Virus record (IMG/VR): IMGVR_UViG_3300027704_003324
Span: 75,241 to 139,240 of that record
Source: a virus
Length of the DNA stretch: 64,000 nucleotides
Direction: 5' to 3' (one strand)
The position numbers and the translations under genes are program-made. Within the stretch, counting starts at the first letter, position 1; each line of letters starts with the position of its first letter. The notes under the pieces were generated by a model. That model worked only from the letters and a program-made list of their open reading frames with translations. It ran no database searches and had not been told where the DNA came from. Of this stretch, positions 8,849 to 25,976 are shown piece by piece.

Positions 8849-10001
8849 AATGTATTACTTTGATATCTTTATTAGTAGAATAAGATCTCCATGGGTCAAC
8901 TATAACAGATCCTTCCGGAAAGTCGTAATCATGATGTTTCCCCATATGTCCTAAAAGGTACACTGCTTTGTAAGGTTTTGTAGGGTCGTACTCTACTTTA
9001 TATTTCGAACCATAAGAAGATTCACAGAAATGTCCTGTAAGTATTGATGTTGATCCATCCTCGTAGTTTACATCTGGTTTATATGCTTTGCCTAATATAA
9101 CGATAGGTAAGTTTACTTTATTAGATTCTATTACTAATCGTTGTGCTAAGTTCTTAGCTTGTTTCTCTCTAGCATTCATTATAGCATCAAATAGATCGTA
9201 ACCTACATCTAACTTTTCAGCCATATACCGTAAAGCAATATTATCTCTTGGATGACATCCTCCACCGTCTCCCATTCCTGCTTTCATATAAGCCGGACCT
9301 AGTATCCTTTGAGTTGATCTTTCTAATGCTCCTGTAATAACGTCTACATTAATATTACCTGATTTCTCAGCAACGTCCTGTATCATATTAACTAAGGCTA
9401 CTTTAGTAGAGATAAAGGTATTGTAGAATATCTTTATACCTTCTGCTTCGTCCCAAGTACCTAATTCATATCTAGTGCCTTCAGTAATAAACGTTTCGTA
9501 AAATTCCAATAGTAATTTAGCATCTCCTGTTGTAGAACCGTCTTCTGTTCCTATAATAATCATTTCCGGATTAACCATGTCCCATTTTACTGTTCCCATT
9601 GCTATTAAGTAGGGGTTATAAATAAACCTTCCATTAGGTATTAAGTCAATAAATTCTCTACGGATTGTACCTGGTAGAACTGTTGATATTAATACTATGA
9701 GTTGGTCTTTAGAGACGTATTTGTTTGTTTCTTCGAGTACCTCTTTAACTATGTTATAATTAAAATCTTTATTAGGTAAATGAGCAGTAGGGTATCTACC
9801 GTCATAGTCTGGGTGATGAGGTGTTGGAACAGCGATAAAAATTATTTCTCTTCCTTTGCAGGCTTCTTCTATTGAAGCTACCATTTTAAAATTTTCTGGC
9901 TCTATGTTGCTAACGTCGTAACCAACTATATCATGCTTTTCAGCCATAACTTCAGCTGCCTCTTTTCCGAGCTTGCCTACTCCTATAAATCCTATTTTCA
10001 T
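8823..10001 (-). CDS. ugd: UDP-glucose/GDP-mannose 6-dehydrogenase family
   Basis: GFIGVGKLG Rossmann motif, FIAVPTP, STVLPGT, KIFYNTF, GDGGGCHPRD catalytic Cys, GKAYKP. Confidence 0.88.
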   Translation of the reverse strand: MKIGFIGVGKLGKEAAEVMAEKHDIVGYDVSNIEPENFKMVASIEEACKGREIIFIAVPTPHHPDYDGRYPTAHLPNKDFNYNIVKEVLEETNKYVSKDQLIVLISTVLPGTIRREFIDLIPNGRFIYNPYLIAMGTVKWDMVNPEMIIIGTEDGSTTGDAKLLLEFYETFITEGTRYELGTWDEAEGIKIFYNTFISTKVALVNMIQDVAEKSGNINVDVITGALERSTQRILGPAYMKAGMGDGGGCHPRDNIALRYMAEKLDVGYDLFDAIMNAREKQAKNLAQRLVIESNKVNLPIVILGKAYKPDVNYEDGSTSILTGHFCESSYGSKYKVEYDPTKPYKAVYLLGHMGKHHDYDFPEGSVIVDPWRSYSTNKDIKVIHYGNTRFKQ

Positions 10002-10060: not shown

Positions 10061-11206
10061 TTATTCTTTTATTATTGCGTTATCGATTGTCCCGAACTTT
10101 AAATCTAACATATCCCAATCATTATCATGTTTACCGTACTGTTTTACTAATCGTTTAAGAATTTCAGGAATGAATTTATGTTCTTTTAAAATTCTTTGGT
10201 AATTTTTTCTATTTCTTATTACCTTTTCTTCTGTAAGCTTTTTAATTTCATTAAAGTTATTAAAGTTATCTGAGTACAGGTATTTATCGTTAAGATTTTT
10301 TAGTTGAGCAGAGATTCCGTTTATCCTTCGTGAATATGGAGAATAAGCATCAAAAGTGTAATCAAATAATTCGTCATAAAGTTCAAAACCGTATGTTGTT
10401 AACATTTTATTAATATGTCTTCCTCCTGCTATAACAAAAGGAACTGCCCAATTAATAGCATTAAAAGTTTTTTCTGTCCAAAAAATTCCATCTGGTTGGG
10501 ATTCACTTATAATATGAATAGCCCCTTTCCATATCTCTTCTGGTGGAGAAGTTGAATATTGATTTACACTACCTTTAAATTTATCTCCGGGAAATGAATA
10601 TACCTTATTGTTATCTTCCCAGTGTTTAAATTTATATTCTCCTTCTGTAGTATCTCTATCGTTATGCCAGGTGTAGTGTAGAGCATTATCCAGTAAAGAA
10701 TCTTTAGCAAAAGTATCCATAAGTTCCATTCTATGATTATGTGCTCTGTTTATCATACAGGTACCTATCTTGTTTGGAACTATATTAGTACCTAATCTTG
10801 GGTTCAAAATATTACTTTCATTATCTCTATGGTATAGTAAACTGCCGTATAACCAGAACATAGGCCAGTAATGTGTAGTTGTATTTTCAACAGGTATAGG
10901 TTTAGGTACTATTTGCCCTCTACTTCCGTATACAATGTGAAGCTGTATATCTCTATCAATCAAAAGTTTTTCCATCTCCCTAATTGAATTTAAATCTGCA
11001 TCTTCTGCAAATCTAGGTTGGCTAGGATCTGTTTTGATATCGCTCCAGTTAAACTCCCATTCTTCAGCATTAAAAAATAGTATTTCTTTAACAGAGCTCC
11101 TATTGTGTTTAATTGAATTATAAATAGTGTCAAACAACGTACCTGATGTATATAACTTATTGTCTTGCCATTGTCTGAGTATTAAGAGTCCATTAATGTT
11201 TTTCAT
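10061..11206 (-). CDS. Uncharacterised GT-B-like protein (TEK family paralog 1)
   Basis: INRAHNHR, IISES, WTEKTF, PFVIAG, GFELYDELFDYTFD shared with 11775-13073 and 13970-15298. Confidence 0.55.
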   Translation of the reverse strand: MKNINGLLILRQWQDNKLYTSGTLFDTIYNSIKHNRSSVKEILFFNAEEWEFNWSDIKTDPSQPRFAEDADLNSIREMEKLLIDRDIQLHIVYGSRGQIVPKPIPVENTTTHYWPMFWLYGSLLYHRDNESNILNPRLGTNIVPNKIGTCMINRAHNHRMELMDTFAKDSLLDNALHYTWHNDRDTTEGEYKFKHWEDNNKVYSFPGDKFKGSVNQYSTSPPEEIWKGAIHIISESQPDGIFWTEKTFNAINWAVPFVIAGGRHINKMLTTYGFELYDELFDYTFDAYSPYSRRINGISAQLKNLNDKYLYSDNFNNFNEIKKLTEEKVIRNRKNYQRILKEHKFIPEILKRLVKQYGKHDNDWDMLDLKFGTIDNAIIKE

Positions 11207-11775
11207 AAAGTAGCGTATAAAGAATTTAGTATTTCTGTTGATGCACTATAGTCTTTAATCTCATAGTAAAGAGAAGTATATTCTTTGCTTTGTAGGTATT
11301 GTCTATCTACTCTACCTCCAAATAGTACTGCTACTCTATTATTATGTATATTAACTTCATTACTCCATTTGTTAATTAAATCATACATTAAATGGTTATT
11401 TTTCACATAAGTTACTTCTTTAGTTAAATCTAGTACTAATTTACATCTTCCGTCTCTGATGTCTTGTAGTACTTTCTCGGATATAACTTTAAATCCGCTA
11501 TTAATATTATTATAGAAGTAGGTGGGAGTTAGTACTTTTATTACATATAAATGTTTACTATCTACTATGTCCTTTATTTCTATATACTCTTGTGACTTTA
11601 AATCCGTAAGTAAATCAGAAGAACGGGTTCCATATCTAAAATAATCTTTCGGCAAAGTATGAAGCATAGTCATTTTATTGGATTCTTTTAGATTCCAGGT
11701 TTCAGATGTACCATTAGGCCTATTGAAGCCTAAAAGTGTATCGTACGATTCTATACTAAATTTAATTTTATCCAT
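11203..11775 (-). CDS. Stand-alone N-terminal domain of the TEK/SEK family
   Basis: KHLYVIKVLTPTYFYNNINSGFKVISEKVLQDIRDGRCKLV aligns with KHIYLVNVFNPEFFKLNIDIGFDLMHERFKKDVIEKRCKVV of the adjacent gene. Confidence 0.55.
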   Translation of the reverse strand: MDKIKFSIESYDTLLGFNRPNGTSETWNLKESNKMTMLHTLPKDYFRYGTRSSDLLTDLKSQEYIEIKDIVDSKHLYVIKVLTPTYFYNNINSGFKVISEKVLQDIRDGRCKLVLDLTKEVTYVKNNHLMYDLINKWSNEVNIHNNRVAVLFGGRVDRQYLQSKEYTSLYYEIKDYSASTEILNSLYATL

Positions 11776-13073
11776 TATAACAAAGGAGTATTAACTGCTT
11801 TTAACTGGTTTATAAGGCAATGCTGCGGTTCATAGTCTTCTCCATGTCCCCAGTTTAGTCTAATTTTGTATTCAAAATGACTTCTATTATGTGCAAGTAT
11901 TTCTTGCATGTCTTTTCTCATCTCATGTAACTCAAGAGTCGACAGTAGTGAGAGTTTTTTTAATTCTTTAGCAATATGTTCTGATCTATTAGTCCAATCT
12001 TCAAACTGATCATATTCTTCATTAAACCATTTACTAAACGTTTTATACCCTTCACATTTTAAATATTGAAGAGTACCTACAGAACCTAACACAAAAAATG
12101 GATGTCCCATAATAATAGGTTTCCATATTTTTTCAGATACAAATAATGTCCCTTTATTAACTAATGTTTCTGTTATTACTGAGCAAAATGTAGACTCGTA
12201 ATCTTGTATTTCTATATTACATGCTAAGTTAAAAAAAGTATTTTTATTATCTATTTGCAAAGGTAGTTGTTTTGCTACTTCTCTCCAATCTCTATCATAG
12301 ACTCCATGTTGCCTTATAGGATTAGAGTGGTGTGCATCTACAGGTTTACCTAAACTTGCTCTTCCTCTATCTAAAATACCGTACTCTTGTAGTTTAGCTA
12401 TGAAATGTAAACGTGAAGGTCTAGGTGCTCTATTATAGGTAAGAAAAAGTTGTTTATTATCTACAGGTTTAAACTTACTTACGGGGTTTACTACTTCATT
12501 TTTATTCCAAGCACTAAATGCTTCATAGTGGTGTACTCTAATGCCGTTGTTTCTAACTTTAATGTGTTCACTAGCAATAGCATTACCTGTAATAAAATGA
12601 ACACTGTTTTTAGGAAAACCTGCTTTTATTCTCCAATTTTCTACTATTTCAATATCGTTATTACCCTCCATTTGAGAATACCCTTCAAATACATACCAGA
12701 TAACAACTTTGCATCTCTTTTCTATGACATCCTTCTTAAACCTTTCATGCATTAAATCGAAACCTATATCAATATTAAGTTTGAAGAATTCTGGGTTGAA
12801 TACGTTAACTAGGTATATGTGTTTTTCGTTATGCTCTAATGTTTCGCTATCTTTCCAAATAATCTCTTCTGAATAAAATGTATGAGGGTAAGCATCGTTG
12901 TTAAGCTTACCGTGATCAAAAAATTCTCCTGTTTCACCAAATATGTTCCATGTACCTAAAGTATAAGGTATGTGAAATTTACCTGTTTCTTTCATATACC
13001 ATGAAGGAGACGATAGATTTGGTCTAGGTCCTTTATATATAGAATCGTAATTTTCTCTAGATAATGTTATCAT
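11775..13073 (-). CDS. Uncharacterised GT-B-like protein (SEK family paralog 2)
   Basis: FLTYNRAPRPSR, SVITET, FVSEKIWKPI, HPFFVLG, GYKTF. Confidence 0.55.
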   Translation of the reverse strand: MITLSRENYDSIYKGPRPNLSSPSWYMKETGKFHIPYTLGTWNIFGETGEFFDHGKLNNDAYPHTFYSEEIIWKDSETLEHNEKHIYLVNVFNPEFFKLNIDIGFDLMHERFKKDVIEKRCKVVIWYVFEGYSQMEGNNDIEIVENWRIKAGFPKNSVHFITGNAIASEHIKVRNNGIRVHHYEAFSAWNKNEVVNPVSKFKPVDNKQLFLTYNRAPRPSRLHFIAKLQEYGILDRGRASLGKPVDAHHSNPIRQHGVYDRDWREVAKQLPLQIDNKNTFFNLACNIEIQDYESTFCSVITETLVNKGTLFVSEKIWKPIIMGHPFFVLGSVGTLQYLKCEGYKTFSKWFNEEYDQFEDWTNRSEHIAKELKKLSLLSTLELHEMRKDMQEILAHNRSHFEYKIRLNWGHGEDYEPQHCLINQLKAVNTPLL

Positions 13074-13963
13074 ACGTACTCTTTCTTTACTAAGTATTCA
13101 TATACTATTTTTGCCAGTACTTTGTGTCCGTATTTAGTCGGATGAGAACAAGGAGTCCAGTATTTATTTTCTTTACCTATATATTGTCCATACCAAGCAT
13201 AATTACGTTTCTTTCTTAACTTTGGTTGTTTATTAAGGATAAGGAGTTGATCTATTAACTGTATGTCTTCTTCTCCGTACATCCAATTATTAAAATCTAT
13301 CTGATCTATAATCTTGCTTTGTCTATTTTGGTCGTCCTCAGTTGTATCGGACATAATATTTTTAATCATTAAGCTTTTATAGCCCAGGTCTTCCATTTGA
13401 TTAATAACTACTAAGTTTGCGTTATTGAGCTTACACCAGTTCTGCAGTTCAACTAAAGTAGAAATGAATTCTAAAGTAGTAGATTTATCATTAAATATTG
13501 CTGTTCCATATCCTATCCATAAGTCTTTATGCCCTAATCTATCTTTGTCATCGAAATCCGGATCTTGAGGCCAAATAGTTTCAAATAGATTACCTGAGGC
13601 TAGGTTTGTATCTGGAGCTATAAATTCATATCTACAAAACTGAGTAAAGGAAAATACAATGGTTATCTCAGAAGCTAAAGTAGCATCAAATTGAGGAGAA
13701 AATGTAGTTAGTTTTTTCACAGCATTACGGTTACCTTTGCCTCTATTACCTAGATTTATTATATTATAATCTTTTAAATGATTTTTCTTTAGTTGACTGG
13801 GCCATGAGTTGTTTCTCTCCATTTCAGTAAAGGTATTAATTACGCTTTGCTTAGTAGGTTCCATCCATTCTAATGTTTCCCAGATACCGTCATCATAGGC
13901 ACCTTGTCCTTCAGTAAATGAATCTCCTATAGCGATAATAACTTTATCTCCTCTCTTAATCAT
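13070..13963 (-). CDS. SGNH/GDSL hydrolase-like protein
   Basis: AIGDSFTEG, SWP, NLGNRGKGN, C-terminal SHPT..GH. Confidence 0.75.
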   Translation of the reverse strand: MIKRGDKVIIAIGDSFTEGQGAYDDGIWETLEWMEPTKQSVINTFTEMERNNSWPSQLKKNHLKDYNIINLGNRGKGNRNAVKKLTTFSPQFDATLASEITIVFSFTQFCRYEFIAPDTNLASGNLFETIWPQDPDFDDKDRLGHKDLWIGYGTAIFNDKSTTLEFISTLVELQNWCKLNNANLVVINQMEDLGYKSLMIKNIMSDTTEDDQNRQSKIIDQIDFNNWMYGEEDIQLIDQLLILNKQPKLRKKRNYAWYGQYIGKENKYWTPCSHPTKYGHKVLAKIVYEYLVKKEYV

Positions 13964-13969
13964 CTTTAT

Positions 13970-15298
13970 TTATTTACAGTAATTGCAAAATGAATCAAAA
14001 TTAGTTGGCTTTTGAAATCTTACGTTATTCTCCATTACTAACTTATTATATTCTACAACTCCTCTTAATTGATTAAACCATTCTAACTTATCTTCAATAC
14101 TTCTTTTACTAAATGCTTCTATCCATTCTAAGATAGCATCCGTTCTTTGTATATCGTTTAATTTATCATACTCTTCTGGGATCATAGCATCAAAGGTTTG
14201 GTACCCGTATTTAGTATGTAAATACTCTAAGCTATCTCTACCTCCAAATACAATAAATGGATGATTTGCAGCTATTGGTTTAAATACTTTTTCACTTAAG
14301 AAAACTGCTTTATTTTTATCCTCAAATTGTGCTTCACTTACAATGGTAACAAAAGAATCTAACATAGGTTGTTCATTTAACCTGTTTATAAACTCTCCAG
14401 CGTCAATATTATCATTTTCTCCGAATGTAGGTACATTATCATAGAATAAAGGAAGAGTTTTTGCTGCAGGACCTAAATCAACTGTTGTAAGAACTTCTTC
14501 TCCCATATTGCATCTTTGGTCTAATTCATAACTAAACTTATTCATGCTAACTATTCCTTCTTTAAGTAAATCTTTCTTATGAAGCATAGTGTACATCCAT
14601 ATCCTATGTTGTCTAGGTCTTCGGTTTAAAAAATTGTATACTTTTATTTTTTCTTTATTAGCATGTTTATATTTTAAATGATCATCAAATGTAGGTGCAT
14701 AAACGTCTGGTTCTTTACTGTTAAGGTATATATCTGCTTCAAAATGACTATACCCTAGAACCTTAATAGTTTTAGTTTTATTGTCTCTCTCGTACTCTTC
14801 TTTATGTTTATGTATATTTAGATCACCTGTAATAAACATTATGCTCTCCACAGGGATATTAAGTCTATCACACTCCTCTTTGAAGAAATCAAACAGAGTA
14901 TCGTCGTAGTATCCCTCTAAAGAATTATCAAACACAATTAAAGCTTCTTTCTTTTGAGCTTTAAGTATATGTTTCATACTAATTGCTGAGAATATTGATG
15001 CTCCATTTTTTTTCATCCAATGATCTGGTGCTGCATGAACACCTATTGGGTATATGTATTTAATGTTCTGTATTTTAGAGTCAGTACCTAAGTACTTATT
15101 AATCCTATAGCTACTATTTAAACCAAAACAAATGTTATCCCGAGTATCTCTATCATCATACATTTCTGGTTTAAGAATAGGTGTGCTAAAGTTTTTTAAT
15201 ACATCCAAGTGTATGAAGTAAGGGGAAGATGTTAAATGCGTGCCTTTCCACGATCTATCTCCATTAAATCCGTCATGTGTATCAGTAACTATGTTCAT
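13970..15298 (-). CDS. Uncharacterised GT-B-like protein (SEK family paralog 3)
   Basis: NFLNRRPRQHR, TIVSE, FLSEKVFKPI, HPFIVFG, GYQTFD. Confidence 0.55.
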   Translation of the reverse strand: MNIVTDTHDGFNGDRSWKGTHLTSSPYFIHLDVLKNFSTPILKPEMYDDRDTRDNICFGLNSSYRINKYLGTDSKIQNIKYIYPIGVHAAPDHWMKKNGASIFSAISMKHILKAQKKEALIVFDNSLEGYYDDTLFDFFKEECDRLNIPVESIMFITGDLNIHKHKEEYERDNKTKTIKVLGYSHFEADIYLNSKEPDVYAPTFDDHLKYKHANKEKIKVYNFLNRRPRQHRIWMYTMLHKKDLLKEGIVSMNKFSYELDQRCNMGEEVLTTVDLGPAAKTLPLFYDNVPTFGENDNIDAGEFINRLNEQPMLDSFVTIVSEAQFEDKNKAVFLSEKVFKPIAANHPFIVFGGRDSLEYLHTKYGYQTFDAMIPEEYDKLNDIQRTDAILEWIEAFSKRSIEDKLEWFNQLRGVVEYNKLVMENNVRFQKPTNFDSFCNYCK

Positions 15299-15299
15299 C

Positions 15300-16304
15300 T
15301 TATTTTTTCCAAAAACTATACAATCCTTTATCTATTTCGTAACTATCCCAAACAAATCTTTCTCTATTTGGTTGCTTCTTAGCCCATTTCCACATTTTAG
15401 ATAAACCTTCATATAAGTCTGTCTTATATTCATATCCAAGAATATCAATAGATTTTTGATATGAGGGGTAAGCGTCTTTAACTTCATGTCTACCTTCTAA
15501 GTACTCAACTGTACCGTTTTTAATAACGTCTCTCAGAATTGCGTTTGCTTCATTTATAGAGTGAAACTTTGTACCGCCGAGGTTAATTGTTTCGCAACAA
15601 GCTTCTTTTAGTGTTGCGGCTTTCCATAATGGTTCCAAACAGTCATCTATAAAAGAGAAAGCTCTAGTCTGGGTTCCGTCACCAAATATTGTCATTGGTA
15701 AATCATTAATGTATTGGTACATCCAAATTCCTAATACATTTCTATATTTATCCCATATGTTTTGCCCTGTACCGAATACATTATGTGGTCTGATAATGCA
15801 GTACTCTAATCCGTGTTGTTCGTGAGCTACTTTTATATCCATTTCACAAGCGTATTTAGCAATACCGTAAGGGTCTATTGGTGAAGGTATATCAGACTCT
15901 TCAAAGGGTCTTTTTCCTTCCCATCCGTGTCCATATACAGCCATAGATGAAGTAAAGACTAATCTTTTTACATCGTGAATTATACATTCATTTACTATTG
16001 CAGCTGTTGCTATAGTATTATTAGTATAGTTGTATTTTCTTATAAAAGGAGATAAACCTTCTGCTGCATAGGCTGCAAAATGAAATACATATTCTGGTTT
16101 ATGGTATTCAAATATACCTGTTAGGTCTTCTTTTGCTATATCAGTTTCATAGAAAATGATTCTCTTGTCTATATTTTCTCTATAACCTCCTGAAAGGTTA
16201 TCGATTCCAACTACTGTGTATTCTGGTTTATTATCTAAAATCCATTTAGCTAACCTACTACCTAATAGCCCTGCAACACCAGTTATTACTATTTTTTTGT
16301 CCAT
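15300..16304 (-). CDS. NAD-dependent nucleotide-sugar epimerase/dehydratase (extended SDR)
   Basis: ITGVAGLLG, HFAA, FTSSMAVYG, YGIAK (YxxxK), RPHNVFG, GDGTQTRAF. Confidence 0.92.
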   Translation of the reverse strand: MDKKIVITGVAGLLGSRLAKWILDNKPEYTVVGIDNLSGGYRENIDKRIIFYETDIAKEDLTGIFEYHKPEYVFHFAAYAAEGLSPFIRKYNYTNNTIATAAIVNECIIHDVKRLVFTSSMAVYGHGWEGKRPFEESDIPSPIDPYGIAKYACEMDIKVAHEQHGLEYCIIRPHNVFGTGQNIWDKYRNVLGIWMYQYINDLPMTIFGDGTQTRAFSFIDDCLEPLWKAATLKEACCETINLGGTKFHSINEANAILRDVIKNGTVEYLEGRHEVKDAYPSYQKSIDILGYEYKTDLYEGLSKMWKWAKKQPNRERFVWDSYEIDKGLYSFWKK

Positions 16305-16807
16305 AATCCTGTTATTTGTAGAGTATATCTTGGTTCAATACCAATATTACTAGCAGCATGCTCTACATCTGTGCTATAAATTACATAATCTCCTCTTTTC
16401 CAATTTACTATAGCCTTTCCTTCTGCTTCAAAATAATGTCCAGGCTTCCAGTCTTCTATAAATATGATGGCTCTACATACTCTATCAATACTTCTTTCTA
16501 ATTTAAACCTTTTACAGTATGTCTGAAAGTGGTCAATATGTGGAGGCATAATTTCAAGCTGTACCATTTTATAGAAGGTATAACCACAATGTGTTAATCC
16601 TAATTCATTTGATACATCTTCTACCCATTCTGGCATTGGGTTTTTACTATTATAAAGAGCTCCTAGAAAAGTATCATGAGTGTATCCTTGATTTCTCCAG
16701 TTATTTAGTTCTTTTTTGTTTGTAAGATTCTGTTTTGTATAAGGAAAATGCAAATATTCATTTCCCATTACTGTGTTAATCTTACCTTGTTTAACCCAAT
16801 TATCCAT
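16289..16807 (-). CDS. 2OG-Fe(II) oxygenase/cupin-fold protein
   Basis: PPHID (HxD), WKRGD, HAASNIG, RYTLQITG. Confidence 0.7.
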   Translation of the reverse strand: MDNWVKQGKINTVMGNEYLHFPYTKQNLTNKKELNNWRNQGYTHDTFLGALYNSKNPMPEWVEDVSNELGLTHCGYTFYKMVQLEIMPPHIDHFQTYCKRFKLERSIDRVCRAIIFIEDWKPGHYFEAEGKAIVNWKRGDYVIYSTDVEHAASNIGIEPRYTLQITGLWTKK

Positions 16808-16809
16808 AT

Positions 16810-17820
16810 TTAATCTCTTACCATATCAGCAGTGCAGCAATGAAAAGAACCTCCTAATGTTCTGGAGTGTCTTATATTTAAGTCCAAAGCTTCAATCTTA
16901 TATTTTTTAAGTTGCTTAATTAATTCTGTTTGTCTATTATCTACACATACTGTATTTTCGTCTAACGAGATAAGATTTATTCCTACCCATTCTGATGCTC
17001 TTAGTACTCCTTTGTATCCTATATCTACCATTGGTGCTGCATATATAATATCCCACCCTTTAAAGAGTTTTGGCATATTCTTTTCGTTAATTCTAGATGG
17101 ATTAACTAATGCTAGTCCGTCTCTTAGAATGGCAATTGTAGAATCTATATGAGAATAGGAATACATATTTTCTAAGTAGTGTACATTGTATTTATCTCCT
17201 AATATATTTTTTAACCAGGTATGTCCTTTTTTATTACCTGTATTAGAGTTTAAATACAGAATGTCGTCGTTATGTCTTAGTATATTTGCTGCATCAAAGA
17301 CAGGTTCAACATTAGTTAATGTTAAATCCTTTAAATTAGTTCTTTGGTAAGAATCATCTGTTAATCTTGGTTTAGGTGCACATATCCATTTAGATCCTTT
17401 GTCATTATATTTTATAAAAAGGTCCCTATAAGCATCCGTTTCAAACTGTCTGGATCTTAACGTCATAGGTGATTCTATAAGGGTATCTCCTATTACTGTC
17501 ATAGTATCTCTAGGACAAAAGGTATAGTATTGATCTGTCTCCCAATATCCGTTAGATACGGTCTTAGTAGTATCTATTATATCAGGTCTGTGTACTATAG
17601 CTCCAAAATCCTGCAAAGCTTTTGTCAATAGGTCAAGATCTTCTATAGACTCTTCATAAACTTTAGGATCAAAGAATCCTAATTCCTTAGAAGGTATATT
17701 ATCTTTGTCCGCATAGTTAATAGCATGGAGATCAAAACCATGTCTAGGCATATTTGCATTGTCGACTCTTCCGACAATTACTTCTCTTAATTTACCGTAT
17801 TCATTTTTTACATTAACCAT
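16810..17820 (-). CDS. Amidinotransferase (glycine / inosamine-phosphate StrB1-like)
   Basis: LREVIVG, CPRD, FDAAN, HIDST, GGSFHCCT: complete Asp-His-Cys triad. Confidence 0.9.
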   Translation of the reverse strand: MVNVKNEYGKLREVIVGRVDNANMPRHGFDLHAINYADKDNIPSKELGFFDPKVYEESIEDLDLLTKALQDFGAIVHRPDIIDTTKTVSNGYWETDQYYTFCPRDTMTVIGDTLIESPMTLRSRQFETDAYRDLFIKYNDKGSKWICAPKPRLTDDSYQRTNLKDLTLTNVEPVFDAANILRHNDDILYLNSNTGNKKGHTWLKNILGDKYNVHYLENMYSYSHIDSTIAILRDGLALVNPSRINEKNMPKLFKGWDIIYAAPMVDIGYKGVLRASEWVGINLISLDENTVCVDNRQTELIKQLKKYKIEALDLNIRHSRTLGGSFHCCTADMVRD

Positions 17821-18412
17821 TTGAAAATACTTTATAGTTTGTTAAATCTGGGTAGTTCTTATATGACCACTCTTTAGGTTTAGTTGCTACTGCATCAGGT
17901 ATTTTATGAATACCCATTAGAGCAGTTTCAGGAGTCATATAATAATGATACCCTGCTGTATTAATTTCTTGTTTATCCCAAGGTAGTGGAGATTTAATAT
18001 CTCTACCATCGTAAGACATTCTCCTTAGTTCATCTGCTGCTTCTTCATTATCAGTTAAGATCATCCCTCCTCTTCCTAAGTTCAAATGCTTCTTAAATTG
18101 AAAACTTAGTACCATAAAGGTCCTATCAATATACGAACTTTCTTTCCAATACACTGCTGAATCTATAATATTTTCAGTTATATAGTAATAATCGTACCAA
18201 TTTTCATCTTTCCAGGTTAGTTCTAAGGTTAATTTACTAGCTAACATAGGAATAGATAGATACGTATGTTTTGGTACCTCAATTTTTTTAGCTTTTGTGT
18301 ATCTGAGAGCTAATTCTAAACCATGAGTACAACAGTCTACTGCTACTGCAAATGGAGCTCCATAATGACGAGCTATTTGTGATTCGAATATGTTTACAGT
18401 TGCAAATCCCAT
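17813..18412 (-). CDS. Short DegT/DnrJ/EryC1/StrS-family PLP aminotransferase
   Basis: AVAVDCCTHGLELAL, IDSA, LSFQFKKHL (PLP Lys), GRGGMILTD, GYHYYM. Confidence 0.82.
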   Translation of the reverse strand: MGFATVNIFESQIARHYGAPFAVAVDCCTHGLELALRYTKAKKIEVPKHTYLSIPMLASKLTLELTWKDENWYDYYYITENIIDSAVYWKESSYIDRTFMVLSFQFKKHLNLGRGGMILTDNEEAADELRRMSYDGRDIKSPLPWDKQEINTAGYHYYMTPETALMGIHKIPDAVATKPKEWSYKNYPDLTNYKVFSNG

Positions 18413-19452
18413 TAGTTAAGTTTTGATATACAATTAAATGCATGTTTTATGTTAACGAGTATTTTGTCTATAGGGTCAGTAATGTGGTAAGTTAGTAGGT
18501 CTGTGCTATATGCTGCTACCAAAGTCCAAGTTGATACCGGATGTCCTAATATAATTTTACAAGTTCTTAATGCTGATTGATCTATTACTGTTTCTAGACC
18601 TGTTCTTTCTAAGTTAGTAGATTCGTATAAGTGAGTACTGTGTATGTATTTAGGTACATGCTTATAAAAATCATCTCTAGTAAATACTTTAGTGCCTTCA
18701 GGTAATAGATCTGTAATCTTCTTAAGTTCTATAGTAGGTAGATCAGTAGAGATATAAAACTGTGCTTTTGGTCTTTCTGCTATGATGTCCTGAAGCAACC
18801 TAGTAACTTTTCTATCATTTACATACTTGTATATAGAATCTTTTGATCTGGGATTATTCTGGTTTAATAAATCATTATCCTGTAATGTTTCACTAAACTC
18901 TAACATTTCTTTTTTAGATTTAAATACTCCTGATCCTCTTCTCAAATGCACTCCTATAGTGTTAGTTCCAAGTACTTTCAAAAAACTTTTTCTAAATGTT
19001 GGATCTATAAGTTTTATTTCTCTACTTCCTTTACGTGTTTTATATTTAGTGTCTTCGAGTACTAAACCTACTTTGCTCCAATCGAATGCTGTATAGTAGT
19101 CAATATTATTTTTAAGCGTATCTTCTTTTCCGTCTAATATGTCATCAACCATTTTATTTGTAATAGGTAGAAGTTTTGTCCACTTCTCTTTATGGTGATC
19201 AAAATCCCATCTAGCTATTTTGCTTTGAATTTGAGGATCTGTATGCCATAACTGCCAGGTCATCATACCCGGAAAGTCTAGAAATTTCTTTTCATGCCAA
19301 AAGTGCTGTTCTACTTCTGTATTATGGTCTGTACCACAAATCATTTGTAATTTATATACTGTTTCCCAATGTTGTATTCTATTACCATATCCTGTATCAA
19401 ACTCATGGTGCCCACCTCCCCATGGTTCTAGTAATCTTATTTTATAATGCAA
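18412..19452 (-). CDS. Fucosyltransferase-like GT-B enzyme (GT11/GT23/NodZ-type motifs)
   Basis: GYGNRI, IGVHLRRG, FYISTD, STWT. Confidence 0.68.
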   Translation of the reverse strand: MHYKIRLLEPWGGGHHEFDTGYGNRIQHWETVYKLQMICGTDHNTEVEQHFWHEKKFLDFPGMMTWQLWHTDPQIQSKIARWDFDHHKEKWTKLLPITNKMVDDILDGKEDTLKNNIDYYTAFDWSKVGLVLEDTKYKTRKGSREIKLIDPTFRKSFLKVLGTNTIGVHLRRGSGVFKSKKEMLEFSETLQDNDLLNQNNPRSKDSIYKYVNDRKVTRLLQDIIAERPKAQFYISTDLPTIELKKITDLLPEGTKVFTRDDFYKHVPKYIHSTHLYESTNLERTGLETVIDQSALRTCKIILGHPVSTWTLVAAYSTDLLTYHITDPIDKILVNIKHAFNCISKLN

Positions 19453-19454
19453 GC

Positions 19455-21020
19455 CTATATAATTTTAGTCCATTTAGATTTTTTCTTCTCCACATCCGGT
19501 GCATATTCGCCTGCCGGGTCAGCCTTCTTCTTCTTAATGTTTACACTTTTCCATTTAGTTTTAATTTCATGTTTAGGTTTATCTATATCTGGTTGGTACT
19601 CACCTGATTCAAAATGAGTAATTGCTCCGTTATTAACTTTTACCTGTGGTATATTTTTATCTACTTCGATAGAGTCGTACCATTCTACCAGTTCTGGGAA
19701 TGTTTCTCTAAAGTTAAGGTTTTTTCTTACATCGTATTGTTCATAGAAACTTTTAAAGTCATGATAATGTTTAGTTTTATCTTCTTCTGTACTTGTATGT
19801 CCTTGCTCTACTACGTCTACATATTTAATCAACCTTTCGATTTGAGCTTTTTCATGATCCATCATCAATGGATGGTCTTTTTTACCCTCATACCATGTTG
19901 ATAACTTCTTATATACCTTAACTTTTTCAGAATCAACTAGATTTAATGGTGATTGAAATGCTGGCCATCTTAATATATTTAAGTCAATACCAGGTGAGTT
20001 CATTCCATATTTTTCTTTAAGAGAAAACATATCATCCATAAATTCAGTAATAGAATAGAGACATAGACTGTTAATAGTCATCATACATATAACTTGATTG
20101 TAATCTGCTTCTTCTATAAACTTAACTAAATTAGCTCTCCATTGATCGTAATCTAATCCTGATCTAATATAGTTTGCTGCTGGTCCATAAGCTTCACAAC
20201 TGGTATATAAATCAAAACCTTTAATATCTATGTCCTTTGTAGTGTCTATAAGCTTTTGTATAAGCTTAGGATGTACCATAAGGTTAGAATTTACTGCTAA
20301 AGTTAAGTCTGGAGCTGGGTGCTCTTTAACTGTCTCTAAGAATTTCCAAAAGTTATGAGATGCAGATGGCTCTCCTCCTGTAACTCTTAATTCTTGTAGG
20401 TGTTTTGATAATTCTGGCCACCATTCAACAAAAGCTTGAACGTATGGATTATTGTCATTATATTTACCAAATAAATCTGCCCATGACCCATCGGCATGAT
20501 ATGCTCCTGCAGAGGTAGTTTTAAAATCTTGGTAAGGTCCGTTTGTTTCAATATCTTTAGCCCAAGTTGTTGAGTACCCAGCATTACAGTATGAACAAGC
20601 TAAATTACAGGTCCTATCAAAAGATACTTCTACTGTTTTTAGCATAATATCAGCATCCCAAGGTGCATTAGCTGCATCTTCTATTTCTTGGTCTGTATAT
20701 ATTCTACTTTTGAAGATTCTATCTCCTGCTGTATTAGGGTCAATGTCTTCTACTTTCCAGCAATAAGAACATTCTGCTGGTCGAACACCTTCAAGCATCA
20801 TTTTTCTTATCTTCTTTTTAAACTGAGTATTATGAAGTGCTGATGGATTTTTTTTAATCTCTTCTAAGTCAATCGGGTGCGGTAAAGGTAAGTGACATGA
20901 ATTAGTGTACCCGTGACCTAAGTGGAGACTGGCATTGTACCATTTAGCTGCACAAAAACTTTTACTTACTGAGTCTAGGTGATCAGCTTTCCACTTTATT
21001 AATTTATCTGTATCTGACAT
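19455..21020 (-). CDS. Radical SAM protein with N-terminal Cys-rich (twitch-like) domain, paralog 1
   Basis: CNLACSYC (CxxxCxxC), TGGEP; N-terminal FCAAKW..SCH..CSYCW. Confidence 0.88.
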   Translation of the reverse strand: MSDTDKLIKWKADHLDSVSKSFCAAKWYNASLHLGHGYTNSCHLPLPHPIDLEEIKKNPSALHNTQFKKKIRKMMLEGVRPAECSYCWKVEDIDPNTAGDRIFKSRIYTDQEIEDAANAPWDADIMLKTVEVSFDRTCNLACSYCNAGYSTTWAKDIETNGPYQDFKTTSAGAYHADGSWADLFGKYNDNNPYVQAFVEWWPELSKHLQELRVTGGEPSASHNFWKFLETVKEHPAPDLTLAVNSNLMVHPKLIQKLIDTTKDIDIKGFDLYTSCEAYGPAANYIRSGLDYDQWRANLVKFIEEADYNQVICMMTINSLCLYSITEFMDDMFSLKEKYGMNSPGIDLNILRWPAFQSPLNLVDSEKVKVYKKLSTWYEGKKDHPLMMDHEKAQIERLIKYVDVVEQGHTSTEEDKTKHYHDFKSFYEQYDVRKNLNFRETFPELVEWYDSIEVDKNIPQVKVNNGAITHFESGEYQPDIDKPKHEIKTKWKSVNIKKKKADPAGEYAPDVEKKKSKWTKII

Positions 21021-21608
21021 TTATATTTTATTTATGAAATTACAATTACCTGTTATGTCTACTGATTTATCGAATATAAATTCTTCGAATAAATGATGAC
21101 AAAGCAGATTACCGTCTTGCTCTATTTTAAATTCTTGTAACGAAATGTCAGTGTAGTTGAGATTATAACCGTTTTTAGGAAAATTACCTGCTCCAAAAAT
21201 AATATGAGGATTATCTTCGATTGCAAAACCTTTTTCAGTTAGATCCAGACTAAGAACTAATCGTTGACTTATAAATATTTCAATTTTCTCTTTTGCTACG
21301 TGTTCTATACGAACTTTTAATTGAACTCCATCAAATATCGGATGAGGTAGTTCATCGTAGTTCGTTTCTCCTAGTTTATTCATTAAAGTAAACAGTAGTC
21401 TACCTTCGTATATGTCTAATGCTGTATAGTGTGGTAGAAGGGTAAACAGCGTACCTATCACACCTTCTACTTTATTAACTATCATATTAATAGACAGTAC
21501 AAAGTTGTTCTCTCCTGTTAATTGTTTTGTTGCTGGATTCTCAGGAAATGTATCACATATATGGTTTGGCCATAAGACCCATGGATTACCCTCTTTTATG
21601 TTTAGCAT
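21021..21608 (-). CDS. Hypothetical protein, possibly LamG/concanavalin-like beta-sandwich
   Basis: Beta-rich; HIIFGAG..ISLQEFKI..SVDITGNCN resembles LamG C-termini; lies between the two radical SAM genes. Confidence 0.45.
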   Translation of the reverse strand: MLNIKEGNPWVLWPNHICDTFPENPATKQLTGENNFVLSINMIVNKVEGVIGTLFTLLPHYTALDIYEGRLLFTLMNKLGETNYDELPHPIFDGVQLKVRIEHVAKEKIEIFISQRLVLSLDLTEKGFAIEDNPHIIFGAGNFPKNGYNLNYTDISLQEFKIEQDGNLLCHHLFEEFIFDKSVDITGNCNFINKI

Positions 21609-22965
21609 AGAATTCTTTTAGTTCTGGAAATGTTTCTTGAAAGTTTGTACCTCGTCTTTCGTCTAATTGGTCTACAAAGGTTACAAATTCCTTCCTAAAT
21701 TTATCTACGCTAAACATACTCTTGCCAATTGCGTAGTCATAGATTCTTTTTATCTTTTGTATTTCAACATTTGAAAAGCCGTAATTATCTTGATGATACT
21801 CTTTCATACCATAATATAGTGCTTTTTTGGCAGAATTCAAAATTAATTCCTTATCTTTATCCTCTAATATTTTAACAGATAAATGTGATGGCCACCTAAG
21901 GTAGGAAGTATCTAATGATACTGCTGATATTTTATATCTTTTACCGTTATGATGTTTCTTTTTCATCTCAAATATTCTATCTAGTAAGTGATCGTATGAA
22001 AATACTGATAGGGCATTAAAGGTAGCCATAATATTGATCGTAACTTTAGGTAACTCTGTAAGTATCTTGTCTACATTTTCCCAAAACTTCTCATAATCTA
22101 AACCGAATCTTGTATATTCTGCTTGTGCTCCTTTTGCTTCTACAGATGTATATACTACAAACTCTTTAACCTTGTCTTGGTCAGTAATTATCTTAGCTTT
22201 AGCAATAAACTTATCTATTAATGCGTCTGGTACTCCTAAGTTGGTGTTTATACCAATCGAAAGTTTAGTATTAGGATTTTCTTCTTCTATAATATAATCT
22301 AGTACTTTAAAGGTATCTTTTGATAATAAAGGTTCTCCTCCTGTAATACGGAATGTATGTAGATCTCTATATAATGAAGGCCACCATTTCCACCATGCTT
22401 CAACATAGGGATTATACTCTGATTGTAGCAATGGCATTTCATTTTTCTTTCGTAATGTTTCGATCTCATTAAATTGACCGTCTGCTGCTTTGTATGGTCC
22501 GTGTTTTTCTATTTCTTGTACCCAAGTAGATGAGTACTGAGGTCCGCAGTAAGCACATTTAAAATTGCATGTATTAGAAAAAGACACTTCTACATACTTT
22601 GGATTAATATCATCTCTCCAATTGGATTTTGCAATTTGATCGAATTGACCTATTGACCACTCTTCAGAAGACTTAAATACTCTATCAGAAAATGAGTTAG
22701 AATTATCTTCTACACTCCAACAGTAGTTGCATTCATCAGGTTTACCTCCCTCTAACATTTCCTTACGTTTTAATTTCTTAAAACGGGTATTATGTAGTGC
22801 AGATGGATTCCTTTTAATCTCTGCTATAGAAATTTTATGAGGAGTAGGATGGTGACATGAATGTGTCATCCCGAGTCCTAGATGTATAGTAACTTGTGTC
22901 CATTTTGCTAAACAAAATCCACATCCTACTTTATCTAATTTATCTTTTACTTGTTGTGAATTCAT
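21586..22965 (-). CDS. Radical SAM protein with N-terminal Cys-rich (twitch-like) domain, paralog 2
   Basis: CNFKCAYC, TGGEPLL; N-terminal FCLAKW..SCH..CNYCW. Confidence 0.88.
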   Translation of the reverse strand: MNSQQVKDKLDKVGCGFCLAKWTQVTIHLGLGMTHSCHHPTPHKISIAEIKRNPSALHNTRFKKLKRKEMLEGGKPDECNYCWSVEDNSNSFSDRVFKSSEEWSIGQFDQIAKSNWRDDINPKYVEVSFSNTCNFKCAYCGPQYSSTWVQEIEKHGPYKAADGQFNEIETLRKKNEMPLLQSEYNPYVEAWWKWWPSLYRDLHTFRITGGEPLLSKDTFKVLDYIIEEENPNTKLSIGINTNLGVPDALIDKFIAKAKIITDQDKVKEFVVYTSVEAKGAQAEYTRFGLDYEKFWENVDKILTELPKVTINIMATFNALSVFSYDHLLDRIFEMKKKHHNGKRYKISAVSLDTSYLRWPSHLSVKILEDKDKELILNSAKKALYYGMKEYHQDNYGFSNVEIQKIKRIYDYAIGKSMFSVDKFRKEFVTFVDQLDERRGTNFQETFPELKEFYAKHKRG

Positions 22966-24374
22966 AGTTTAATGTTTATCATCTTCGCCCAAGGAGTAAG
23001 TACGTCTTCTCCTAATAATTCATAATTCACTTGTTTTATTCCGTCTTGCTTATAATCTATTTTACCGTTTTGCATTTGTAATACATAACGTTTTTCATTC
23101 TCTGCTGTCGTTTCTCCTTTAACAAATTTACCTCCTATTATGCCTTCATCTTCATGTGGTAAACATCTAAATCTACCTTCCCTTCTAAAAGGTAAAATTG
23201 AGTTTGGAATTTCTATATCTTCTATTATAGTTTCGGTAGCATAATCATCAACCTTATCATGGTCTGGGTTATTAAAGTCTAAATTTATTTTAAGTTCATC
23301 TTGAGGTATATTGTTATGTAGGTCTGCAACCTCTTCTGGTCTTAAGTCTCTTCCCCAAGCAAATACTTTTGCTATATCTCCTTTGAAGTACTTAATAGTG
23401 CTTTCATCTTTTTCAGAAGGAGTAGTACCTAAGTACCAATCTGCTGATCCATACCCTTTCAATTTACCTTGCCATTTATAAGGCGATGGACTTCCAATTC
23501 CACCTCTAGAATCTACTTCACTGCCGTTTAAGTACATATGAGAGAGTTGCTCTCTATTAGAGAATACCATTGTTACCCAACTCCATTGTTCATCGTACCT
23601 CTTTACCCACATATAGTTATGTTGGTTAAACGAGTTCCAATATGTAGCTGATATAGCTCTAGAATTATTAAATCCTATACCATAATCATACCCTGGTATT
23701 CTTAGAACTGGGTATTCTACATATCTTCTGTCTTTCTGACCGATTAAGAATATAGGGTTCTTTTCAGGTTGCTGACGGGGTCTCATCAATACTGATATAG
23801 TGTGACTTTTAGAAGTTAGCCCTCTTAATTTTCTTTCAAAAGGAATTTTAATGAAAGAATTATTTCCGTTAAATCTCCTATAAGTTTGTTCTTGAGGAGT
23901 TTTAGTTATAAAAGTATTATTAGTAAGCCCTTCTTCATGGCATCGCCAAAATAAATCATCATCTTCCATACCCCAATCCCAATAATTATTAGAATATCCG
24001 TTTGTTTTCTCTAAATGCTCTTTAGTAAATACAACTGCACCTCCAAAATATTCATGATATTTAAGTTGGTAATTCATTTGAGATATCTTAGTAGCAATAT
24101 GTCTTGGTCCTTCTGTAGGGTAAGAGTAATCTGCTCCTTGTTCTGGTATCATGTCTATATCATGAAACACTACATAGTCGCATCCTTCTTCAAAAGCTAC
24201 TTTAGCTGCAATATTCTTAGTAGCTCCTCTATTAAAAAGCTTATCGTCAGCTTGATGACAAAAGTACATATGAAATTCTATGCCCTGTTCTTTTAAGTAC
24301 TTACCTGTTTTAGGTATGAACTCATTTAGGTGTTCTTCTCTATTACGGTAAGGTACACATACTCCTAGTTTCAT
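22962..24374 (-). CDS. GT7 (beta-1,4-galactosyltransferase-like) with inserted LamG-like domain
   Basis: VPYRNR, FNRG, HDID, YFGG, NGYSNNYWDWGMEDDD; insert FNGNNSFI...YLNG...FKGDIAKV; C-terminal FRCLPH..DGIKQVNY. Confidence 0.85.
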   Translation of the reverse strand: MKLGVCVPYRNREEHLNEFIPKTGKYLKEQGIEFHMYFCHQADDKLFNRGATKNIAAKVAFEEGCDYVVFHDIDMIPEQGADYSYPTEGPRHIATKISQMNYQLKYHEYFGGAVVFTKEHLEKTNGYSNNYWDWGMEDDDLFWRCHEEGLTNNTFITKTPQEQTYRRFNGNNSFIKIPFERKLRGLTSKSHTISVLMRPRQQPEKNPIFLIGQKDRRYVEYPVLRIPGYDYGIGFNNSRAISATYWNSFNQHNYMWVKRYDEQWSWVTMVFSNREQLSHMYLNGSEVDSRGGIGSPSPYKWQGKLKGYGSADWYLGTTPSEKDESTIKYFKGDIAKVFAWGRDLRPEEVADLHNNIPQDELKINLDFNNPDHDKVDDYATETIIEDIEIPNSILPFRREGRFRCLPHEDEGIIGGKFVKGETTAENEKRYVLQMQNGKIDYKQDGIKQVNYELLGEDVLTPWAKMINIKL

Positions 24375-25771: not shown

Positions 25772-25976
25772 CTACATTCTTTGCTTTAGTTAGGTTAGTA
25801 TGCCATTCAGCTAAATAGAATTGAAGTCTATCTCCCCATTCGTCTTTATCTACTTCTTCAAACCACACAGTAAGTGCATCTAAACTCATTGCGATTTTTT
25901 CTAAGGCTTTAACTTTTCTTTCTTCTTGTATAACTTTTTCTTGAGCTATAACTTGTTCTTGTGTTTCCTTACTCAT
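25764..25976 (-). CDS. Hypothetical protein
   Basis: 70-aa helical ORF, translationally coupled, preceded by an internal promoter. Confidence 0.65.
   Translation of the reverse strand: MSKETQEQVIAQEKVIQEERKVKALEKIAMSLDALTVWFEEVDKDEWGDRLQFYLAEWHTNLTKAKNVDE

Follow-up and report, generated by a model that had tools for sequence, protein, structure and literature searches.

A StrB1-like amidinotransferase paired with a half-size DegT-family protein in a phage glycan island: a possible route to guanidino sugars

Could a phage build a guanidino sugar? The question is raised by four consecutive genes at positions 15300 to 18412 of a 64,000-nucleotide stretch of viral DNA (hereafter the window), which forms the final 64 kb, positions 75,241 to 139,240, of the IMG/VR virus record IMGVR_UViG_3300027704_003324, a record of 139,240 bases that is rated 84% complete. 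An earlier note made from the letters of this DNA had read the four products as a pathway in which a short-chain dehydrogenase/reductase (SDR) makes a keto sugar, a DegT-type aminotransferase converts it to an amino sugar, an amidinotransferase turns the amine into a guanidino group, and a 2-oxoglutarate (2OG) oxygenase possibly hydroxylates the result. Our analysis partly supports this interpretation. The conserved unit is the pair of DegT-family protein and amidinotransferase, not the four-gene set, and the SDR would have a different role from the one proposed.

The four genes were confirmed as tightly packed open reading frames (ORFs) on the minus strand. In the direction of that strand they encode a 199-aa DegT-family protein, here called mini-DegT (17813..18412, PF01041); a StrB1-like L-arginine amidinotransferase of 336 aa, here AmT (16810..17820, identified through PDB 1bwd and PHROG); a 172-aa protein with an HxD...H motif whose motif, fold and family point to a probable 2OG/Fe(II) oxygenase (16289..16807); and a 334-aa extended SDR resembling nucleoside diphosphate (NDP)-sugar 4-epimerases (15300..16304, PF01370). 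The junctions among them measure -8, +2 and -16 bases, and the outer neighbours abut at -1 (upstream) and +1 (downstream). The motifs quoted in the earlier note are all present: SFQFKK at residues 103-108 of mini-DegT, and FDAAN, HIDST and FHCCT at residues 175-179, 224-228 and 326-330 of AmT.

An amidinotransferase of the StrB1 type in a viral clade

Judged from its sequence, AmT is a full-length amidinotransferase of the AGAT/StrB1 type, with arginine-dependent transfer as the predicted reaction. It has no Pfam match at E 0.01 and was identified through its PDB and PHROG matches. Against StrB1 of Streptomyces griseus (1bwd) it scores 303 bits (E 1.8e-89), with residues 1-335 aligned to 3-339 and 148 of 335 positions identical, or ~44% by a hand count of the alignment; against AGAT, HsvA and SxtG the scores are 175-179 bits (E 1e-51 to 1e-49). 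AmT and StrB1 are alike in length class, in aligning end to end and in their Cys/His/Asp triad. The catalytic triad of AGAT is given as Asp254/His303/Cys407 in the part of PMC3684758 used here, and the alignment places D176, H224 and C328 of AmT at these positions. Neither these three residues nor D105, D226, R243 and S276 vary across 16 sequences with identities of 65-100%, which bears out the intact triad claimed earlier.

The lid of AGAT comprises a 300-flap and a helix-9 insertion, as described in the portion of PMC4887976 consulted. Both elements are absent from AmT, which places it in the StrB1 subtype. Its alignment with StrB1 is almost gapless, whereas the alignment with AGAT needs query gaps of 4 and 9 columns near position 160, where AmT and StrB1 both lack the residues that AGAT inserts. 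The sequence ahead of the catalytic His reads YSYS in AmT, YAST in StrB1 and PNPM in AGAT (PNPH in the mutant chain shown). Fritsche et al. in 1998 reportedly linked an absent lid to bulky acceptors.

Homologues of AmT are numerous in metagenome protein collections, where 669 were found at E <=1e-3; nearly all among those listed are 336 aa long, and the best 120 of them are 65-97% identical to AmT, several with marine sample labels. Copies occur in 32 viral contigs at 64-100% identity, including two contigs of more than 320 kb (326 and 333 kb). Cellular relatives were sought with an alignment-based scan of one genome per prokaryote species, a scan with the single sequence having found nothing. 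Six were recovered, all of them only 40-45% identical, from two Streptomyces, a Nocardioides, a Chloroflexota, a Caldilineaceae and an Acidobacteriaceae genome, and in none of the six was mini-DegT a neighbour. Within the limits of these scans, which use short patterns that divergent cellular relatives can escape, the AmT clade (64-100% identical) is viral.

Some of the cellular relatives stand in a context of their own. In the two Streptomyces genomes (loci L019 and L021) the AmT relatives, at 43-45%, adjoin a ~1000-aa AMP-binding/citrate-synthase fusion protein, and the same fusion is carried by the locus of the Chloroflexota metagenome-assembled genome (L017), where tblastn gave an AmT match of 44% and no AmT ORF was called. 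These loci look like an uncharacterised natural-product context. Fusions were also considered as clues to function, and a 925-aa protein joining an AmT-like region (40% identity) to PF01266 was set aside as uninformative, since it falls outside the clade.

A half-size aminotransferase-family protein

The partner of AmT was identified in the earlier note as a DegT aminotransferase. Membership of the PF01041 family and the lysine for pyridoxal 5'-phosphate (PLP) hold, while the truncation went unremarked: at 199 aa the protein has ~55% of the length of a normal DegT. It matches PF01041 with 59.2 bits (cut-off 19.8, E 5.3e-16) and covers profile positions 24-84 and 165-234 of 360. Because it is half-size and lacks the two-domain architecture of ~360-400 aa, it was classed as a truncated variant and not as a standard member of the DegT/DnrJ/EryC1/StrS family.

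An AlphaFold2 (AF2) model built from 18 sequences has a pLDDT of 90.2, and its top Foldseek matches are sugar aminotransferases (E 1e-8, TMq 0.63-0.71, targets of ~365 aa), among them the metagenomic sugar transaminase 7b0m, ArnB (1mdz), GDP-perosamine synthase (3dr4), DesI and PglE. These alignments span ~220 columns of the ~365-aa targets, and the superposition falls on the PLP-binding domain. In the same 18 sequences D84, S103, K108 and the motifs GRGG, YDGR and GYHYYMTPE are invariant. By profile alignment, and partly by motifs that we take to be diagnostic, K108 of the S-x4-K motif (S103, K108) would be the Schiff-base lysine and D84 the aspartate that contacts the pyridine nitrogen. On the strength of the model, then, mini-DegT is best described as a conserved, half-size protein of the sugar aminotransferase family that consists of the PLP domain only.

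The conserved unit is a pair

Gene neighbourhoods were compared in 32 viral AmT loci, namely the window and 31 others; a contig nearly identical to the window (L002) was omitted, the AmT sequences number 22 distinct ones, and identical sequences were collapsed for alignments and tree. Mini-DegT is present in 32/32 of these loci. The pair also occurs in Synechococcus phage S-SCSM2R (PQ898602.1), where one glycosyltransferase (GT)-rich cluster contains ORF305 (mini-DegT, 52%), ORF308 (HxD-like protein, 28%) and ORF309 (AmT, 41%); the gene order there differs, with a radical SAM (S-adenosylmethionine) gene and a GT between mini-DegT and AmT.

The other two genes of the quartet are far less constant. 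The 172-aa protein is found in 7/32 loci, as is the SDR type of the window (TSSMAVYG-like, ~334-339 aa), although an SDR of any kind is present in 26/32. The full quartet is confined to the window's phage and the near-identical contig L002. The co-occurrence that was to be expected of a four-step pathway is therefore seen for the mini-DegT/AmT pair and not for the oxygenase or this type of SDR, and the four genes are not a conserved set. Directly after AmT, 7 loci have the 172-aa protein, 8 have a free short SDR (~290-303 aa), and 17 have a protein of 707-760 aa that combines an N-terminal SDR with a GT-like remainder (by Pfam in locus L036; the SDR motif is present in 14/17).

Conserved partners that had been overlooked lie outside the four genes. 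Twitch-domain radical SAM proteins, counted as at least one cluster member, accompany AmT in 29/32 loci; a 346-aa fucosyltransferase-like protein and a set of GT-like paralogs each occur in 30/32, and a sugar dehydrogenase in 19/32. The core order is radical SAM, radical SAM, 346-aa protein, mini-DegT, AmT, SDR or HxD protein, and GT-like protein. In some loci (L030, L036-L039 and L042), a ~639-aa protein with a B12-binding and a radical SAM domain and a ~280-aa SGNH-like protein lie between mini-DegT and AmT.

AmT takes the place of an N-modifying enzyme

The mini-DegT family extends well beyond phages with AmT. A scan with the mini-DegT alignment returned at least 565 viral loci, and the best 80 (L048-L127) were examined with flanks of ±5 kb; 78 were used, L057 and L122 being omitted for want of a called mini-DegT ORF. 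The mini-DegTs of these other phages are 30-63% identical to that of the window. The gene that follows is an SDR in 57/78 loci and AmT in 6/78. One of the SDRs, from locus L058, was tested and proved to be a full-length protein of the GDP-mannose-4,6-dehydratase (GMD) family (E 8e-116), and its motif SSSEMFG is carried by 57 SDRs in mini-DegT loci.

In classical amino-sugar pathways a dehydratase, an aminotransferase and an N-modifier act together, as do PglF, PglE and PglD or GMD, Per and PerB. Candidates for the last of these roles could be recognised in the mini-DegT loci, as hexapeptide acetyltransferases (17), formyltransferases (9), GNAT proteins (6), methyltransferase-like proteins (27) and AmT (7). 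None of the tallied acetyl-, formyl- or methyltransferase clusters was found in the 7 AmT-bearing loci. Flavobacterium phage immuto has a mannosyltransferase first, followed by mini-DegT, a PglD-like acetyltransferase (PglD_N and Hexapep), an SDR and a GT; the AmT loci have mini-DegT, next AmT, and after it an SDR or HxD protein. AmT is therefore placed where the acetyltransferase would be and never stands with another modifier, which suggests that it occupies the N-modifier slot. Among the 78 loci, twitch radical SAM proteins occurred only in AmT-positive ones (4/4). A protein of 136-147 aa with no Pfam match (cluster c2) accompanies mini-DegT in 49/78 loci.

In a quick tree of 89 mini-DegTs, those linked to AmT fall into two deeply separated lineages, with L026 and S-SCSM2R in addition. 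The AmT label needs 4 changes on this tree, and well-supported branches make at least 2 of them unavoidable. Since AmT-linked mini-DegTs belong to at least two deep lineages, the pairing is not merely one inherited block. The constancy of the pair, its recurrence in two lineages and the N-modifier position together lend support to the central step of the earlier note, in which AmT would act on an amine set by the DegT-family protein.

The SDR and the oxygenase-like protein

The SDR carries the features of an extended SDR, with GxxGxxG (GVAGLLG, 9-15), YxxxK (YGIAK, 146-150) and a match to PF01370 (E 8.7e-43), the sole match to this family in the 139-kb record. In the PDB it is matched best by 4zrm, which is a UDP-glucose 4-epimerase (E 1.8e-43), and among proteins of solved structure its closest relatives are 4-epimerases of UDP-hexoses and UDP-GlcA. 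In 4,6-dehydratases an S/T-x-E motif ahead of YxxxK is catalytic. The corresponding strand of the window's SDR reads TSSMAVYG, so that the acidic residue of the motif is absent, as against SSSEMFG in the GMD-type SDR beside the mini-DegT of L058. From its sequence, the protein looks like an epimerase and not like a 4,6-dehydratase. Closest to epimerases, without the dehydratase Glu and of a type found in so few AmT loci, it does not sustain the role of keto-sugar maker that had been assigned to it.

For the 172-aa protein the 2OG oxygenase label rests on motif, fold and family, the protein itself having no match in Pfam, NCBIfam or PHROGs. It has the HxD...H triad with a basic residue ~10 positions after the distal His, a spacing taken as typical of 2OG oxygenases; H90, D92, H150 and R160 are invariant in 7 close sequences. 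A profile search of 1.84 billion representatives gave 673 relatives at E <=1e-3, and across 86 family members H90, D92 and H150 are conserved at >=90%. PF05118 (Asp/Asn beta-hydroxylase) is matched by 32 of these 86 relatives (best E 6.6e-6), though not by the window's own protein. The AF2 model is of moderate quality (pLDDT 74), and its top Foldseek match is the prolyl-4-hydroxylase of P. putida (4j25, E 5.8e-5, TM ~0.5); other 2OG oxygenases are among the best fold matches (TM ~0.5), but plain cupins match too. A language-model search gave the same 2OG oxygenase lead. The HxD...H...R pattern is shared with the Asp/Asn beta-hydroxylases and with 4j25, and the protein is probably a 2OG/Fe(II) oxygenase related to the Asp/Asn-hydroxylase type.

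Domain fusions suggest where these two enzymes may act. Of 12 long relatives tested, 11 have the 172-aa domain fused to a GT-like domain; one protein is ordered GT-like, HxD, GT-like, and elsewhere GT-like proteins (L036 8968-11178; P0137-P0145) have an N-terminal fusion to a short SDR or to an HxD domain. Because HxD domains are fused to GT-like proteins in other viruses, a glycan-related substrate seems indicated, and by these fusions both the oxygenase-like protein and the SDR appear functionally tied to GT-like proteins.

Proposed pathway and alternatives

The reading that we favour, at slightly better than even, is that AmT amidinates an amine placed on a sugar by mini-DegT, giving a guanidino sugar for a phage-encoded glycan. 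Mini-DegT, as a PLP enzyme, would transaminate a keto sugar, likeliest a 4-keto-6-deoxyhexose in nucleotide-activated form or a similar compound. From L-arginine the amidino group would pass to Cys328 of AmT and from there to the sugar amine, with guanidino sugar and ornithine as products, AmT taking the place of the N-acetyl-, N-formyl- or methyltransferase of the commoner phage mini-DegT modules. GT-like proteins of the island would then place the guanidino sugar in a glycan, while the 2OG-oxygenase-like protein and the epimerase-like SDR would be accessory tailoring enzymes. The keto sugar might come from the host, as a 4-keto-6-deoxy sugar, or its keto group might be made by the two twitch radical SAM proteins. 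BtrN-type dehydrogenases are the analogues for such a role, and, as no relative of the twitch radical SAM proteins has a solved structure, it would be an analogy only. The proposal draws on homology and the conservation of catalytic residues, on synteny, on the mutual exclusion of modifiers and on domain fusions; from these we infer acceptor, donor, step order and product.

Several points weigh against it. Every activity in the module is predicted from sequence and structure models. The known acceptors of StrB1 are, to our knowledge, cyclitol phosphates and not sugars. Mini-DegT, in which the C-terminal domain is missing together with ~45 residues of the large one, may not be a competent aminotransferase. 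No 4,6-dehydratase-type SDR was recognised in the AmT loci by a motif search that left 10 SDRs unclassified, and the window's phage has no NTP_transferase and a single, epimerase-like SDR, so that no gene of the phage could be named as the source of the keto-sugar substrate. The 32 loci include many close relatives, and their counts therefore overstate independent support; the exclusivity of modifiers is based on 7 related AmT loci with the flanks given above, and the mini-DegT tree is a quick search, midpoint-rooted.

The product could instead be a small guanidino-aminocyclitol or another secreted metabolite, with radical SAM proteins oxidising a cyclitol, mini-DegT aminating it and AmT amidinating it. 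DegT-type aminotransferases and twitch radical SAM dehydrogenases do cooperate in aminoglycoside pathways (StsC, BtrS/BtrN), the best characterised relative of AmT is the inosamine-phosphate enzyme StrB1, and a twitch radical SAM protein accompanies AmT in all but three of the 32 loci. The authors of S-SCSM2R likewise read its genes as 'antibiotic synthesis genes', a label that, in the part of the paper considered here, comes with no biochemistry or other experiments (PMC12801897). The families of a streptidine-type cyclitol route, namely inositol-phosphate synthase, GFO/IDH dehydrogenase, DHQ-synthase-type cyclase and APH-type kinase, are nevertheless missing: the 139-kb record, which is 84% complete, has no match to PF07994, PF01408, PF01761 or PF01636, whereas control genomes did match; host enzymes lay outside this search. 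The module moreover sits among GT-like genes near structural genes, the partners of its mini-DegT family elsewhere are NDP-hexose dehydratases and N-acyltransferases, and the radical SAM proteins have no solved relative to support the oxidation step. We consider a cyclitol product quite improbable. A further possibility, unlikely in our view though a little less so, is that AmT has an amine other than an amino sugar as its acceptor, such as glycine, lysine, ornithine, a polyamine, a lipid head group or a lysine residue of a protein, and that its linkage to mini-DegT reflects co-regulation. We know of no amidinotransferase with a sugar acceptor, and Campylobacter phages have distant relatives of AmT that carry the annotation glycine amidinotransferase. 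In the portion of PMC4887976 used, the acceptor is given as glycine for AGAT and CyrA and as lysine or ornithine for AmtA. By score, however, AmT is far closer to StrB1 than to AGAT-type enzymes, it lacks the AGAT insertion and has the flap sequence YSYS, its synteny with mini-DegT is strict in two lineages, and it stands in an N-acyltransferase slot.

Hydrolysis or reverse action, as in arginine deiminase or DDAH, by which AmT would mainly remodel host arginine and guanidino pools, appears very improbable. It is suggested by a weak NCBIfam dimethylargininase match (E 8e-4) and by some metagenome homologues annotated as dimethylarginine dimethylaminohydrolase. That match covers the C-terminal third only, at 18.6 bits against a cut-off of 300, whereas the matches to transferases are full-length at 175-303 bits, and synteny favours a glycan role.

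The guanidino-sugar reading can be carried further. In its most specific form, the virus-only StrB1-like AmT clade would make a guanidino sugar, for example a 4-guanidino-4,6-dideoxyhexose, which phage GTs attach to virion proteins as a cationic glycan coat, the keto precursor coming from the twitch radical SAM pair and not from an SDR dehydratase. As a whole this is doubtful, and we offer it tentatively. The glycan island lies within the block of structural genes, beside the sheath gene in the window and likewise beside it in loci L007-L011, and this position, with the LamG-fused GT7 proteins described below, makes virion proteins a candidate target; the candidates for the glycan's destination are the virion and the host envelope.

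The phage and its glycan island

The window belongs to a tailed myophage, with terminase, portal, major head protein and tail sheath all recognised and every large ORF on the minus strand. The nearest relative of the capsid protein is that of Flavobacterium phage immuto (64% identity), by which the phage is not obviously a cyanophage. A megablast search of phage records with the four genes returned no close DNA relative. The exact stretch is present in marine metagenome runs from 11 studies, and contigs of four metatranscriptome runs (two studies) cover parts of all four genes and their neighbours; since such libraries can contain DNA and the contigs give neither strand nor level, this is not proof of transcription.

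All four genes lie in a glycan island of ~21 kb (7131-28440), flanked on one side by the sheath gene and on the other by a fibre-like ORF of 1683 aa, in which at least 8 GT or GT-like genes were counted; the features listed here are all on the minus strand. Directly upstream of mini-DegT is the 346-aa protein (18412..19452), which has no Pfam match and whose ESM Atlas neighbours, by language-model features, include O-FucT, NodZ and FUT8 clusters (scores 0.95-0.97), so that a fucosyltransferase/NodZ-like identity is a lead only. Beyond it are the two twitch-domain radical SAM proteins (19455..21020, NF033640 E 6.5e-90; 21586..22965, NF033640 E 1.1e-99). For the second, a PDB sequence search up to E 10 returned no relative. 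The sole good isolate homologue of these radical SAM proteins is in Ralstonia phage RsoM2USA (41.5%), amid hypothetical proteins, and a literature search on their function gave a single paper, whose mention of twitch domains is confined to its references. Between the two lies a 195-aa protein (21021..21608) with no Pfam match and no family assigned, which is kept in 6 loci, a different protein of ~245 aa (cluster c6) taking the same position in 19.

Further upstream are two paralogous proteins of the galactosyltransferase-type GT7 family, each with a LamG/ConA-like domain (22962..25771; Pfam Glyco_transf_7N, 7C and Laminin_G_3 in both). They form a tandem of eukaryote-type galactosyltransferases, each with a fused lectin domain. 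A GT2-like protein, a methyltransferase and a DUF6734 protein (25973..28440), assigned by Pfam, mark the upstream edge of the island. On the other side of the four genes, the region 10061..15298 encodes three GT-like paralogs of 442, 432 and 381 aa, assigned by cluster membership, and a 190-aa protein with no family assigned. The three paralogs belong to a single cluster of 83 proteins from 30 loci, for which no Pfam family was found. An SGNH/GDSL-like protein (13070-13963) has a GDSL match under the cut-off (E 1e-4). SGNH/GDSL-like paralogs are numerous in these islands (clusters c7, c8, c15, c18 and c27) and start with GDS(W/F)-type or GCS(F/Y)T-type motifs, with weak Pfam GDSL matches in some only. 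Next comes a nucleotide-sugar 6-dehydrogenase-like protein (8823..10001) with the central and N-terminal UDPG_MGDP_dh domains of Pfam, a TIGR03026 match under the cut-off (E 8.5e-41) and UDP-glucose dehydrogenases as PDB matches (E 5e-20).

Two ORFs of the window are very large, at 29508-34559 (1683 aa) and 39243-43931 (1562 aa). Short stretches of the first have 73-80% DNA identity with tail-fibre or baseplate genes of Pelagibacter phages and Prochlorococcus podophages.

The phage has a second glycan locus outside the window (G000 11072-18778, L014), with NeuB, a nonulosonic acid synthase (E 1e-73), a CMP-type cytidylyltransferase, a polysaccharide pyruvyl transferase, two GT2 proteins, a DUF6492 protein and an MptE-like protein. 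A link between mini-DegT and nonulosonic acids was considered in view of this NeuB and of the best NCBIfam matches of mini-DegT, LegC and PseC, both far under their cut-offs. Of 9 other AmT-bearing records searched, only 2 had NeuB, and a 326-kb record rated 100% complete lacks it; nonulosonic acids were therefore dropped as a general explanation.

Relation to known systems and significance

All four protein families are already known; the novelty lies in a viral clade of AmT, a family of half-size aminotransferases and the prediction of a guanidino decoration. Unlike StrB1, AmT belongs to a clade seen here in viral contigs only, has no streptomycin-type cyclitol genes nearby and has an acceptor that is predicted. 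The nearest parallel in gene organisation is with the amino-sugar N-modification modules of phages, which have the same mini-DegT family, gene order and single N-modifier slot. In sugar biosynthesis such modules are exemplified by PglE/PglD for bacillosamine and GMD/Per/PerB for N-acetylperosamine. The AmT loci differ in having an amidinotransferase as the modifier instead of an acyl- or methyltransferase, and in having an epimerase-like or short SDR or an HxD protein, plus two twitch radical SAM genes. Cationic amidine-type decorations are known from bacterial glycans, in the acetamidino sugars Pse5Ac7Am, Leg5Am7Ac and ManNAc3NAmA, but their N-acetimidoyl groups come from amidotransferase-type enzymes and are not guanidino groups from an arginine-dependent amidinotransferase. 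A literature search, of a kind that misses most subscription journals, found no report of guanidino-sugar decoration; among the papers listed for amidinotransferases and phages, PMC12801897 alone is relevant, and PMC11360552 deals with GAMT and creatine.

Phage S-SCSM2R is a cultivable isolate. A second 'glycine amidinotransferase' of this phage, ORF266, was detected in the virion proteome according to the part of PMC12801897 used here. As tblastn finds only ORF309 in the S-SCSM2R genome, ORF266 is a more distant protein. With a cultured carrier, S-SCSM2R on Synechococcus WH7803, and enzymes of small size, the question raised by the pair is directly testable. If the guanidino-sugar reading is true, the published antibiotic-synthesis reading of the S-SCSM2R genes would need revising.

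The module is not a one-off, as its 669 metagenome homologues and 32 viral contigs attest, and the half-size sugar aminotransferases form a large phage family, of at least 565 loci, that merits biochemistry. Should AmT act as proposed, amidinotransferases, so far known for creatine, toxins and aminoglycosides, would gain a new class of acceptor, and the guanidino sugar would be a new cationic building block of natural glycans.

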